From Bacteroidales bacterium UBA6244 (lineage in GTDB: Bacteria > Bacteroidota > Bacteroidia > Bacteroidales > F082), in NCBI GenBank assembly GCA_002440885.1, contig DJVY01000100.1:23702-87701 (forward strand): a stretch of DNA of 64,000 nt, in the 5' to 3' direction. The position numbers and the translations under genes are program-made. Below are positions 47,190-51,311 of this stretch, piece after piece. The first letter of the stretch is position 1. Every line of letters starts with the position of its first letter. The notes under the pieces are model-generated. The model did no database searches, was not told where the DNA came from, and worked only from the letters and a program-made list of their open reading frames with translations.

Positions 47190-50100
47190 TCACAGATGGA
47201 AGTCGAGGAACTTTTGATTTGTTTTCACCGGATAGTTTCCGATATAAACGTTTCCCAGATTTCCGTCTATCGAAAGCAGATCGCCGCTTTTAAGCAAATG
47301 GCCATTCATTTCGCAGGTTTTTTGACTGTCGAAAACTTGCAAGCTTGAGCAGTTTACCACCGAGGTTTTGCCCAAGCGAACAGCGGTTACGGCAGCATGT
47401 GAGGTAGCACCACCTTTTCCTGTAAGTAGCCCGTCGGTTGCGAAAATCATTCCTATGTCATCAGGAACGGTATCAGGGCGAACCAGAATTACTTTTTCGT
47501 CCGGATATTGCTTGCGGAGGGTTTTAATGTCCTGGTCATCGATGGCTATTCTACCCGACATCGCTCCACCACCAACACCAATTCCTCTTCCGGCCAGTAT
47601 CATCTGGTCGATGGGTGTTTCAAACACATCTGCCGACTTGTTTGCCGCCATGTCCTGATCGCGGATCTGCAGGATGAACAGGTCTTCCGCTTTTTCCGAC
47701 TCGAAGGTAAACTCAATCTCCAATGGACTATATCCATGATTTTCTGTCAAATCAATTGCCATTTGGTGCAGGCGTTGGTAGATTTCCGGAAAATTCTCCT
47801 GCATCGACAGACCTTGATCGTTCTCGGCTCTGGATTGGTTTTTGCTAACCGGACGTGGTGTTACCAGCCCGGCCACAATGTCTTCGCCTTGTCCGCTAAG
47901 GGTAAAATCGCCATAAAGGCTTACTCCATGCTTTTCTTTGGTTGGATCTTGAGTAAAAACTACCCCTGTTCCACTCGTTTCGCTCAGGTTTCCAAAAATC
48001 ATTTGTTGAACCACAACCGCTGTTCCCCAGTCGTCGGCAATTTCCAAATGCTCGCGGTACACCTTTGCCCGCTCTGATGACCAGGATTCAAACACAAGGT
48101 TTATTGTGGTGAGCAGTTGCTCAAATACATCTTCTTCAAAATGTATTTTTTTGGTGCTTAGTGCCGACTTGTAGGCCATCGCCACTTCGCGCATGGCAGC
48201 CGGTTTTAGCTCAATTTTCTGATCAACACCGTATTTTCCTTTAAAACTCTCGATGATTTGATCAAACTCATCGCGGGTCATGCCGAAAGCCATTCCCCAG
48301 CTTTGCAACAACCGGCGATATGAATCCCATGCGCTCCATTCAAACCCCTTAATCCTGCTCATGTTTTCGGTTATTTCATCGTTCATGCCCACATTAAGCA
48401 AGGTGTCCATAGCTCCGGGCATCGAGATGGCCGTGCCCGATCGTACCGAAAGCAGGAGTGGGTTCTGGCTGTCGCCGAATCTTTTTTTGGCAGCTCTTTC
48501 AACCAGGTGAAGGTGTTCGCGAATAAGGTCATTCTTTTCTTTTCTGAGCTCAGGATGTCCGAGTATAGCTGCCTTGCGGCGAAAAGCTTCGGTAGTAATC
48601 ACAAATCCCGGAGGAATAGGAAAGCCGGCAATGCGCAGGTTTTTAAGGTGATAGGCCTTCGACCCCAGAAATACCTGGTTGTCGACTTGTGGATTCGGGA
48701 GTCCAAGTCGTGTGATGATTAAATCGGAGTTGTACGACATAATTTCATTAATCATACGTCCCGGCAGGTTATCCGACATCTCACGCAAAGATTCCAGAAT
48801 ACGCGAAATAAAATTGTCGAGTGGTTGCATTAAAAAGGCATCGGCGATGACATCACGGTAGAATTGTTCTGATTTTTTGTTGATTAACTTAACCAGCTCT
48901 CTTTCATTCAGCTGCGCGCCCTGATCAAAAATTTGTGGAACGACAATCCGAAGCGGTATTTCGTACGATTTTAAAAAATATTTGATGATGATGCGTTTTA
49001 CATCTTCGGCCAAAAACTGAAATATGTTTATATACTGCTCAAAACTAAAACTTTGTGAACGGAGACTGTATTTAAGCATGCGTAAGTTGGAGTTGAAGCT
49101 TTGGTTGGTTATACCATCCAGCTCCAAACCTTCTCTGAAATAGTCGAGAATGGTGTAAATATTTTTTAATGTTTTAGCCGAGATATAGTTCAGATTGATT
49201 TGCTCCACCACTTTCTCCATAAGTCGTGTGGCTACATTTTCGAGGCGGAAGGTAAGTCCGAGGGCCTCAAATTTTGGCTCGCGGTATGTGCCATACATCG
49301 AAGGAATACCGATGGCGATATGGCGTTTGTGGTAAATATTCTCCCATCCCTGACTCGTTTTCGGGTTAAAAATAATCTCTTTCAGCTTGTTCATGAAGCT
49401 GTAAATCAGCTTAAGCGACGACTCAAAGTCGTTACTTTCGAGGGCTTTTGAAAAGGACTCCACCTCCTGATCGGCGATATAACTGTACCGTTTGAGCAGC
49501 GAAATGATGTCAACGGTTTCGAAGGAGTACTTCTCTTTTAAAAAGGCGTACAATCGGCGGGTGTCCCTAAGTCTTTCTATATCACGATCGTTGGATTTGC
49601 TGAGTTGCCTGAGAAGCTGTTCAAAGGTTGTTTCATCGGTGCCGAGGAGTTCTGTTGGGTCTTTCTTGCTCATCAGGCACAATTCGTTCACCATGTGATG
49701 TATTGGAGCGAAGAACTCGTTCGTTTTGTCAATTTCCCTGTAAACGTTTAGCGGGAGCGCATCTTTTAACGCTTCCAGGTTGCCGTCGTGCCAAAATACA
49801 AAGATTTTTCGGGTGAGGTCGATTAACGTGTTGTTGCTTTCGGTGTGCACCTGTTTGCGCAGGAAATGAACAAGTTGGTCCTTTCGGTGCGAAATCTCGT
49901 CCATGGTAGTAGTCACCTTCCGAATTTCCCCTTCAGCTCCGATTTCGTTGAAATACACCGGAAAAATGCGTGTCAATTGCTTAACCTTTTTGTAAAAGGG
50001 GGCGATGTTTGAGTTGAGAATCTTTGTTATCTCCCGCTGAAATAAATCGGTATCGCTCAGAAAAATTCCTCCCATCTTTAGATTTACAATCAACGTGGAA

Positions 50101-51311
50101 AGGAGTTTTTCCATCTCCATTTGCGAATATTCAATAAGTTCTAACCAAACGCTGATGTTTTTGATGTGGTTTACGTTGACCGAAAGTTGCCAGTCTTCGT
50201 TGACATAAACAATACCAGGAGTTTCAAAACCAAACAGAATAATTTGTTCCTCAAAATACCGGGAGATTCGTTGCGGTTTTTCACGGTCGATATCGATGGT
50301 TTTTTTGCCCACAGTAAGCAGGATGTCGAGCACCGAATTGGTATGTTCAGCGCGCAGACCTCTGGCAAAGGTGAAAATCTGATCGATAAAGTTGCGTAAA
50401 TCTTTGCTGTCCACTTCATCAATGGCCTTTCTAACCATTTTATTCAAGTCCCAGATCAGACGTTCCTTGTGGCTTTGCATGCCGGGAAGTTGGAGCAAAT
50501 AGAAACTGTAGTAGAACTTTTCGATAAAGGTGGGGAAATAGATCATGGCATTGGCCATAACATGGCTAATAAAATCGAAATCAGGCATTTCATCGGATAG
50601 CTCCTTCCATTTCATGGTGTTTTTAAGTTGGTCGATTTGTTTATCAAACCACTGTGTACCCACCTGATCTTCAATAATTTTCTTGTTGTTGGACAGTATC
50701 GACGCCTGTGTTTCAAGCCATTTTTCTATACGGGTTGTCTCTTTCCAGTATTCAAGGTTTTTGAGGTGTACTTTTTTCGATAAGTCGAAGGCGGCAGTTT
50801 TAAACTCGGACTTTTCGGCAATGCCGGCCAGATAACGGTTAAAGTACTTCAGGTTTTGAATATAAGTAACCGGATGCAATTTCATTCCTTGATCGAGAAT
50901 GCACAAGCAAAAACCAATGGTTGTAGAAAACCGGTCTTTTTCTCCGGCGATTTTGTCGATGAATTCGAGCAAAGTGCGTAGAGCAAGAATCTGGGTTTCG
51001 GGGTTTCCGGTTTCGAGCATCAGGGTCTGCATCATTTTTAAGGGAACCTCGAACACCTTCTCGTTGTCATTTAAACCCACATAAAACCAATAGTCGGTTA
51101 AAAGTATCTTACGTAGCTCCTCTACCACAAATTTTCTGTTTGAAAAAGGATGTTGGTATTCTATCACGCAATCGTTTGCACGTTTGGTGATACCAAAATA
51201 CGATTTTGACAGGTCTATAAAGTGCTGAAAATCAGCTGGAATTTTAATGTCTTTATAGCGTGTTTCAGCGAGATTGGCTTCGAGGGCTTTTGATTCGAAT
51301 TTTTCTTCCAT
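47190..51311 (-). CDS. PPDK-like ATP-grasp + phosphohistidine (PEP-utilizer mobile) domain protein lacking the PEP/pyruvate barrel, with ~880-aa uncharacterised N-terminal region
   Basis: 1373 aa from ATG 51311 (the track start 51386 is TTG and overlaps the -7 box). The C-terminal ~490 aa carry [94 protein letters not shown] and [11 protein letters not shown] (His codon 47397-47399). The ORF ends 68 aa later. Confidence 0.8.
   Translation of the reverse strand: [1373 protein letters not shown]

Follow-up and report, generated by a model that had tools for sequence, protein, structure and literature searches.

Which acceptor is served by a protein that has the nucleotide-binding and phosphohistidine domains of pyruvate, phosphate dikinase (PPDK) but not the barrel for phosphoenolpyruvate (PEP) and pyruvate? 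The question is raised by a 1373-codon gene, here called the dikinase-like gene, of Bacteroidales bacterium UBA6244. The gene lies on a 64,000-nucleotide stretch of contig DJVY01000100.1 (assembly GCA_002440885.1, positions 23,702 to 87,701 of the forward strand), hereafter the window. Its product is likely to be an active swivel-histidine phosphotransferase that is functionally tied to glyceraldehyde-3-phosphate dehydrogenase (GAPDH), whose gene, gap, is its conserved genomic link across phyla. New here are a presumed acceptor domain with a new fold, the order of the domains, and a consistent metabolic partner.

The catalytic module occupies the C-terminal part of the protein. Pfam assigns PF01326 (PPDK_N) to residues 930-1227 (E 6e-34) and PF00391 (the mobile domain of PEP-utilising enzymes) to residues 1271-1353 (E 9e-15), and finds no match to the PEP/pyruvate barrel PF02896 anywhere in the protein—exactly the combination predicted in an earlier note on this DNA. 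When the protein is searched against the Protein Data Bank (PDB) with phmmer, residues 881-1360 align with residues 17-509 of the Clostridium symbiosum PPDK (E 1e-81), and the open reading frame (ORF) stops where PPDK residue 510 would be. The module thus corresponds to the N-terminal part of PPDK, as the earlier note had held, and the PPDK sequence blocks that it quoted are all present in the translation. With the NCBIfam equivalog for PPDK, TIGR01828, the protein reaches 381 bits where 843 are required, and the match spans only model positions 12-341 of 865.

Residues of the PPDK ATP site have counterparts in the alignment (Table 1), and the histidine of the GGxTSHA motif is kept in 389 of the 397 full-length homologues. 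An AlphaFold2 (AF2) model of residues 350-1373, built from a 122-sequence alignment, has a mean predicted local distance difference test score (pLDDT) of 90.4 and a predicted template modelling score (pTM) of 0.80. In Foldseek comparisons, the modelled ATP-grasp and histidine domains superpose on PPDK structures 1KBL, 1DIK, and 2DIK at 2.6-3.0 Å over approximately 538 columns, a state in which the histidine domain is docked on the nucleotide domain. On structures in the other swivel state (1VBG and 2R82), the modelled domains superpose at only 13-14 Å. The ATP-grasp and phosphohistidine carrier domains are therefore intact. With the T-S-H motif and the ATP-site residues of PPDK all in place, the reading of the protein as a swivel-histidine dikinase or phosphotransferase stands, and its predicted role, as already suggested from the sequence, would be to act on a substrate other than that of PPDK.

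The gene is complete at both ends. Homologues align from the very first residue (MxxxxxSKALE), and the ATG at 51311 is therefore taken as the true start; the mechanical ORF reaches further upstream, to a TTG at 51386. At the other end, 68 residues follow His1305, and 236 bp separate the stop codon from icd (45730-46953); these values, the ORF coordinates, and the position of the histidine codon all agree with those first reported. A check for a truncated or frameshifted 3′ end found the same C-terminus in more than 390 full-length homologues, and the homologues of 1335-1440 residues that share this end point number in the hundreds. Truncation or frameshift of the dikinase-like gene is ruled out by homologue lengths together with the ratio of the proportions of non-synonymous (pN) and synonymous (pS) differences.

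Ahead of the catalytic module lie 880 residues that had been described as helix-rich and unlike anything recognisable, and this description holds. The AF2 model of residues 1-880 (pLDDT 86, pTM 0.76) is all-alpha except for one beta-hairpin at residues 656-677. A PEP/pyruvate barrel in permuted position, which was looked for in this region, is thereby ruled out. The region belongs to no family in Pfam, NCBIfam, or PADLOC; the sole Pfam entry, DUF6291, falls short of its cutoff (E 0.024). Against all PDB sequences, a 101-homologue profile finds no credible match to residues 1-867; fragment matches to a P450 and to Cas9 in that search (E 6e-4 to 4e-3) were taken as noise. Foldseek returns no PDB match to the model below E 1e-3; the highest-ranking ones are generic solenoids of HEAT type (karyopherins, FANCI, and CAND1), with E >= 3e-3 and TM-scores of 0.1-0.2, and the rifampicin-binding domain of rifampicin phosphotransferase (RPH) is not among its matches. 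A characterised substrate domain was thus sought in Pfam, NCBIfam, the PDB profile search, and Foldseek, with none found, and no characterised orthologue of the whole protein was found in the literature. The N-terminal domain is new, without a known substrate domain or barrel.

Conservation divides this domain in two. The core at residues 265-880 is under purifying selection equal to that on the catalytic module (pN of 0.062 and 0.060, respectively, with synonymous sites saturated at a pS of approximately 0.7), and pN for residues 1-264 is 0.173. Within the core, conservation is centred on two elements, a motif at residues 451-493 (invariant residues E456, G458, A459, E460, G461, R464, D471, R476, D478, R485, K486, H489, and E491) and the hairpin at residues 656-691 (K662, R663, H664, A666, I669, P670, S671, Y673, G674, Y676, and R689). 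Among the residues invariant across four phyla are R464, R476, R485, K486, H489, K594, K662, R663, H664, R689, and R819; so many invariant arginines, lysines, and histidines would suit an anionic ligand. The two best-conserved elements are also the least confident parts of the isolated-domain model, with a pLDDT of 61 for the motif and 47 for the hairpin tip. When the PPDK module is modelled too, the motif rises to 89 and the hairpin tip to only 64, a comparison confounded by the greater depth of the second alignment. The pattern in these models would fit loops with a functional role, in contact with the catalytic module, with a ligand, or with a partner, and the core is presumed to be the acceptor- or partner-binding domain.

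The protein was at first regarded as an orphan, a status that does not survive an exhaustive phmmer search of residues 1-880 against 1.84 billion cluster representatives (E <= 1e-3). This search gives 450 matches, and those longer ones that were checked also carry the PPDK-type module; the family is widespread, with hundreds of homologues in several phyla. More than 120 proteins of 1370-1377 residues, 62-98% identical to the query, come from Lentimicrobiaceae, other Bacteroidales, and Ca. Sulfidibacterium. Relatives at 35-49% identity (1335-1400 residues) occur in Cloacimonadota, Clostridia, and other Bacteroidota, and a subfamily of 1390-1440 residues is found in Thermodesulfobacteriota, namely Syntrophales, Syntrophorhabdus, Smithella, Desulfobulbaceae (among them cable bacteria), and Desulfogranum mediterraneum. 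Distant matches have only residues 265-880 in common and differ at their N termini, some of which are hemerythrin domains: PF01814 is present in P0296, P0299, and P0452, relatives of 1455-1546 residues. The catalytic histidine is kept in P0452. In P0296, it is replaced by tyrosine, and the hairpin is altered from KRH to KHH and from GIPS to GTAS; the gene is nevertheless retained.

Neither a curated family nor a paper on the dikinase-like protein was found in databases or the literature. Its members carry the public names 'hypothetical', 'PEP/pyruvate-binding domain-containing protein', 'pyruvate, phosphate dikinase', and 'ppdk2'. PPDK-type misannotation affects P0015, P0159, P0195, P0225, P0417, and others, all of which lack the PEP/pyruvate domain, and such labels can therefore give false PPDK calls in metabolic reconstructions from metagenome-assembled genomes (MAGs).

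Examination of distribution and gene neighbourhood, which the earlier note had called for, shows the linkage to gap to be conserved. Searching from the dikinase side, a GAPDH gene is adjacent in 13 of 13 genome loci with flanking sequence. The arrangement differs among lineages. In relatives at 65-87% identity (Lentimicrobiaceae and Bacteroidales), gap is divergent, as it is in the window; in two loci at 44-45% identity (L011 and L014), it is co-directional and directly upstream with a spacing of 2 nt; and in a Cloacimonadota locus (L013), it is directly downstream. A GAPDH-family gene of 413-424 codons lies downstream in a Clostridiales MAG (L015 and L016), in Cloacimonadota (L017 and L018), in Syntrophales (L021), and in L019 and L022. 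In the reverse direction, 80 metagenome loci were fetched by alignment of these long GAPDHs alone, and 69 of them have a dikinase-like gene beside the long GAPDH gene, 63 directly upstream on the same strand and six convergent just downstream.

ORF clustering over 102 loci leaves only two recurrent families, GAPDH (95 loci) and the dikinase-like protein (78 loci), with no third recurrent partner gene and no PF02896 barrel gene recurring nearby. No phosphoglycerate kinase (PGK) gene, pgk, lies within 6-10 kb in these 102 loci (1.08 Mb in total), as searched with a PGK query that itself matches PF00162 with 472 bits, and neither pgk nor a second PPDK gene is present in the window. The long GAPDHs form a distinct clade with three insertions, score 288-318 bits against the type I cutoff of 367 (TIGR01534), and are only 33-37% identical to the canonical 335-residue partners. 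Partner GAPDHs keep the catalytic cysteine (within S-C-T-T in the long form), the catalytic histidine, and the phosphate-binding arginine. That the linkage persists across two such divergent GAPDH types argues for shared chemistry over one co-evolved interface.

Comparison with known systems places the protein within the swivel-histidine superfamily, since it combines an ATP-grasp domain, a mobile histidine, and a distinct, presumed acceptor domain that is conserved and fused. It is, however, none of the named enzymes: it lacks the barrel, scores below their cutoffs, and has another acceptor domain and another domain order. PPDK itself (EC 2.7.9.1; C. symbiosum 1KBL/1DIK) is approximately 32% identical over the ATP-grasp and swivel-histidine domains, and the catalytic residues—the ATP-grasp set and G-G-x-T-S-H—are kept. 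The dikinase-like protein nonetheless lacks the PEP/pyruvate TIM barrel, falls short of the TIGR01828 cutoff, and has in addition an unrelated helical domain of 880 residues at its N terminus. The order in PPDK is ATP-grasp, histidine, acceptor, whereas here it is acceptor, ATP-grasp, histidine.

RPH, glucan, water dikinase (GWD), phenylphosphate synthase and other HpeHI-type enzymes, and PigC/RedH likewise join ATP-grasp and a swivel histidine to an acceptor domain peculiar to each family. RPH and HpeI are structural matches in Foldseek by way of the ATP-grasp module. With the RPH, RedH, and PigC models, the protein gains no more than 40-49 bits where the cutoffs lie at 999-1350; for RPH (NF041857), the score is 46.7 bits against 999, from the ATP-grasp module only. 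In RPH- and GWD-type enzymes, the acceptor domain is unrelated and the domain order differs. GWD carries N-terminal carbohydrate-binding modules (CBM45/CBM20), whereas Pfam finds no such module in the dikinase-like protein at E <= 1 and its N terminus is all-alpha.

A further parallel is VadK (Rv1127c) of Mycobacterium tuberculosis, a truncated PPDK reported to be a regulatory autokinase that autophosphorylates His422 and associates with methylcitrate-cycle enzymes (bioRxiv 10.1101/2025.10.30.685616). Both proteins have PPDK-derived ATP-grasp and histidine domains without the barrel, and the autophosphorylated histidine of VadK is the equivalent of His1305. VadK, however, is a protein of approximately 490 residues with no extra domain, as against 1373 residues here, and the dikinase-like protein scores 285 bits against a cutoff of 456 with the VadK model (NF004531/PRK05878), whose type comprises proteins of approximately 490-534 residues. 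It is found in Bacteroidota and other phyla, and its partner is GAPDH, not the methylcitrate-cycle enzymes. The two are probably independent truncations of PPDK. Apart from VadK, nothing relevant was found in the literature on a PPi-dependent PGK or a 'phosphoglycerate dikinase'.

What, then, would such an enzyme do beside GAPDH? By analogy, a strict two-gene module is read most economically as a kinase paired with an acyl-phosphate reductase, as in PGK/GAPDH, LysC/Asd, ProB/ProA, and ArgB/ArgC, in which a carboxylate would become an acyl phosphate and then an aldehyde; the gene stands beside gap as pgk does in many gap operons. The reaction tentatively proposed is 3-phosphoglycerate + ATP + inorganic phosphate (Pi) ↔ 1,3-bisphosphoglycerate (1,3-BPG) + AMP + pyrophosphate (PPi), a dikinase-type counterpart of that of PGK. 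To PGK the protein has no relation in sequence or fold, and it would use a phosphohistidine and convert ATP to AMP and PPi.

PPDK enzymology suggests how this might proceed. The ATP-grasp domain would pyrophosphorylate His1305 with ATP, after which Pi would remove the gamma-phosphate, giving PPi. The swivel domain would then bring the phosphohistidine to an acceptor site within the new domain. Pi is expected to be the phosphate acceptor because the module resembles Pi-dependent PPDK (381 bits) far more than it does the water-dependent PEP synthase (82-89 bits) and is not closest to any water-dependent enzyme. Invariant basic residues of the motif and the hairpin may make up the acceptor site, and the acceptor itself may be the carboxylate of 3-phosphoglycerate, which would yield 1,3-BPG. 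Together, the dikinase-like enzyme and GAPDH would thus achieve carboxylate activation followed by acyl-phosphate reduction. Succinyl-CoA synthetase offers a precedent for a phosphohistidine that donates its phosphate to a carboxylate.

Textbook energies of hydrolysis are −49 kJ/mol for 1,3-BPG, −46 kJ/mol for ATP to AMP and PPi, and −31 kJ/mol for ATP to ADP and Pi. With these, the proposed reaction comes to approximately +4 kJ/mol, near equilibrium, whereas PGK in the same direction comes to approximately +19 kJ/mol. A reaction so poised would ease gluconeogenesis, or would conserve PPi energy glycolytically, in energy-limited anaerobes.

Several points weigh against this assignment. The acceptor is taken from gene neighbourhood only, and a domain of 880 residues that may be a HEAT-like solenoid would more typically bind proteins than form an active site for a small metabolite. 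PGK is near-universal and reversible, so that a bypass may not be needed. The dikinase-like gene of Desulfogranum mediterraneum (L020) has no adjacent gap, and approximately 11 of the 80 long GAPDH genes have no dikinase-like neighbour. The hemerythrin sensor domain in some relatives fits regulation at least as well, and VadK, the closest characterised truncated PPDK, is reported as a regulator and not as a metabolic enzyme (bioRxiv 10.1101/2025.10.30.685616).

These last points lead to the strongest of the alternatives, a protein-directed phosphotransferase or regulator whose solenoid-like domain would dock GAPDH or another protein. The phosphate on His1305 might then be passed to a residue of the partner, or the complex might tune GAPDH by energy or redox state. 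Such a role is somewhat doubtful, although it accommodates much of the evidence: the Foldseek matches of the new domain are of HEAT type only, VadK provides the precedent of a truncated PPDK bound to methylcitrate-cycle enzymes, and the hemerythrin-fused N termini suggest sensing. It would also be consistent with the retention of P0296 despite the loss of its catalytic histidine, and with the 2-nt spacing to gap in L011 and L014, which is tight enough for translational coupling and typical of complexes. In Enzyme I of the sugar phosphotransferase system (PTS), HPr docks on a helical subdomain and receives phosphate from the swivel histidine; the swivel domains of that enzyme and of the dikinase-like protein show distant similarity. 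Three features nevertheless speak against a regulator. Constraint is very high over the full length and the catalytic machinery is invariant, as in central metabolic enzymes; the partner GAPDH switches from the canonical 335-residue form to a 415-residue form with inserts, with no matching change in the architecture of the dikinase-like protein; and the invariant residues fall mostly into charged clusters carried by flexible loops, much as active-site residues do.

It is less likely that the protein is a dikinase for some other small molecule that supplies the GAPDH step or draws on it. The acceptor might be glycerate, glyceraldehyde, dihydroxyacetone, or another carboxylate whose acyl phosphate is reduced by the long GAPDH, or else an unrelated xenobiotic or glycan, as with RPH, GWD, and phenylphosphate synthase. 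The superfamily has repeatedly recruited acceptor domains, with RPH, HpeI, and PEP synthase all structurally matching the ATP-grasp module, and the sub-cutoff scores of the long GAPDHs leave room for a different substrate. The partner in the window's own lineage, however, is a canonical type I GAPDH above that cutoff; no tpi, glycerate-related, or transporter gene recurs nearby; and no resistance or mobile-element context was seen, with PADLOC giving no match. Finally, a decayed or split PPDK—a pseudo-enzyme, or one with its barrel supplied in trans—would suit a module closest to genuine PPDKs and the public PPDK and 'ppdk2' names, but is very improbable given the common end point in more than 390 homologues from four phyla, the strong purifying selection, the lack of a recurrent PF02896 gene nearby, and the conserved and invariably fused 880-residue domain.

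If the link between the dikinase-like protein and GAPDH is one of enzyme chemistry, it would add a new reaction to the trunk that glycolysis and gluconeogenesis share, a pathway whose bacterial form is usually held to be fully mapped. Bacteroidales, Cloacimonadota, Clostridia, and syntrophic Thermodesulfobacteriota would then possess a PGK-independent, PPi-linked step with a dedicated GAPDH. These anaerobes are dominant in digesters, sediments, and guts, and other steps of their metabolism already depend on PPi. The new domain would also be a fourth acceptor-domain solution in the swivel-histidine dikinase superfamily. Should the protein instead be a regulator, it would be the second case after VadK, and a far more widespread one, of a PPDK that has come to control an enzyme of central metabolism.

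Table 1. Features of the dikinase-like gene, its product, and its neighbours. Positions are those of the window unless a locus is named; aa, amino acids.
Feature	Position	Strand	Basis
Dikinase-like coding sequence, 1373 aa plus stop	47190..51311	(-)	ORF list and translation; full-length homologues 62-98% identical; strong purifying selection
Variable helical N-terminal region, aa 1-264	50520..51311	(-)	Distant relatives align only from about aa 265
Conserved core of new all-alpha (solenoid-like) domain, aa 265-880	48672..50519	(-)	pLDDT 86-90; pN 0.062; invariant basic/acidic residues
Invariant motif, aa 451-493, ending ...D.L.HFLRKQ.H.E.N	49833..49961	(-)	pLDDT 61 isolated, 89 with PPDK module
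Invariant beta-hairpin, aa 656-691, WENIY.KRHIA.GIPSMYG.Y.E.K.EA.G..FR.E., flexible tip	49239..49346	(-)	Homologue alignment and AF2
PPDK-type ATP-grasp nucleotide-binding domain, aa 881-1227	47631..48671	(-)	PF01326; aligns to PPDK 17-344; Foldseek root-mean-square deviation 2.6 Å to 1KBL
Phosphohistidine swivel domain, aa 1241-1360	47232..47591	(-)	PF00391; aligns to PPDK 392-509; 2FM4 match, TMt 0.83
Catalytic His1305 codon, within GGATSHAAV	47397..47399	(-)	Aligns with His455 of C. symbiosum PPDK; kept in 389/397 full-length homologues
ATP-site residue K885 (PPDK K22)			Alignment
ATP-site residue R957 (PPDK R92)			Alignment
ATP-site residue E1198 (PPDK D321; Asp to Glu)			Alignment
ATP-site residue E1200 (PPDK E323)			Alignment
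ATP-site residue Q1215 (PPDK Q335)			Alignment
ATP-site residue R1217 (PPDK R337)			Alignment
Swivel motif T1303-S1304-H1305 (PPDK T453-S454-H455)			Alignment
gap, type I GAPDH, 335 aa, conserved genomic partner	51444..52451	(+)	TIGR01534, 444.6 bits against cutoff 367
Divergent intergenic region common to the dikinase-like gene and gap, 132 bp	51312..51443	.	Two Bacteroidota-type -7 boxes
-7 box TACTTTTG	51384-51391	(-)	Faces dikinase-like gene
-7 box TAACTTTG	51350-51357	(+)	Faces gap
Citrate synthase (eukaryote-type, NF007128/TIGR01793) and NADP-isocitrate dehydrogenase (eukaryote-type, TIGR00127), tandem	44409-46953	(-)	Directly downstream
Long GAPDH genes	L013:12117-13373; L015:4441-5694; L017:10096-11343; L021:11295-12569; L022:11287-12540; further ones L023-L102

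In the region common to both genes, one -7 box faces the dikinase-like gene, for which the earlier note had claimed a promoter box. The two -7 boxes are weak evidence, because the motif is no more frequent window-wide than expected by chance. Scans for sigma-70 promoters and intrinsic terminators gave counts below the shuffled expectation and are uninformative.

The neighbours in the window are as the earlier note gave them, with NADP-isocitrate dehydrogenase and citrate synthase downstream and a divergent type I GAPDH upstream. The weight that it placed on the tricarboxylic acid (TCA) cycle genes is not borne out, as the partner conserved across phyla is gap. A functional link to icd and the citrate synthase gene is ruled out as a conserved feature; the pair follows only in the four closest relatives (L001-L003 and L012). 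Flanking the citrate synthase end are a pfkB-family sugar kinase gene (+) and a gene for a LacI-family regulator (-) at 42221-44194. Beyond gap, at 52594-56675 (-), genes for a 675-residue tetratricopeptide-repeat (TPR) protein and polyphosphate kinase 1 (683 residues) lie tail-to-tail; this synteny is seen only in the closest relatives (L001, L002, and L012). In the cultured Desulfogranum mediterraneum, the gene for WP_028583945.1 is followed by one for a heavy-metal P-type ATPase, not GAPDH (L020:7001-14284). A peroxiredoxin (AhpC/TSA) gene, not recurrent in the clustering, lies upstream of the dikinase-like gene both in that organism (L020:47-631) and in Cloacimonadota (L013:7100-7765).

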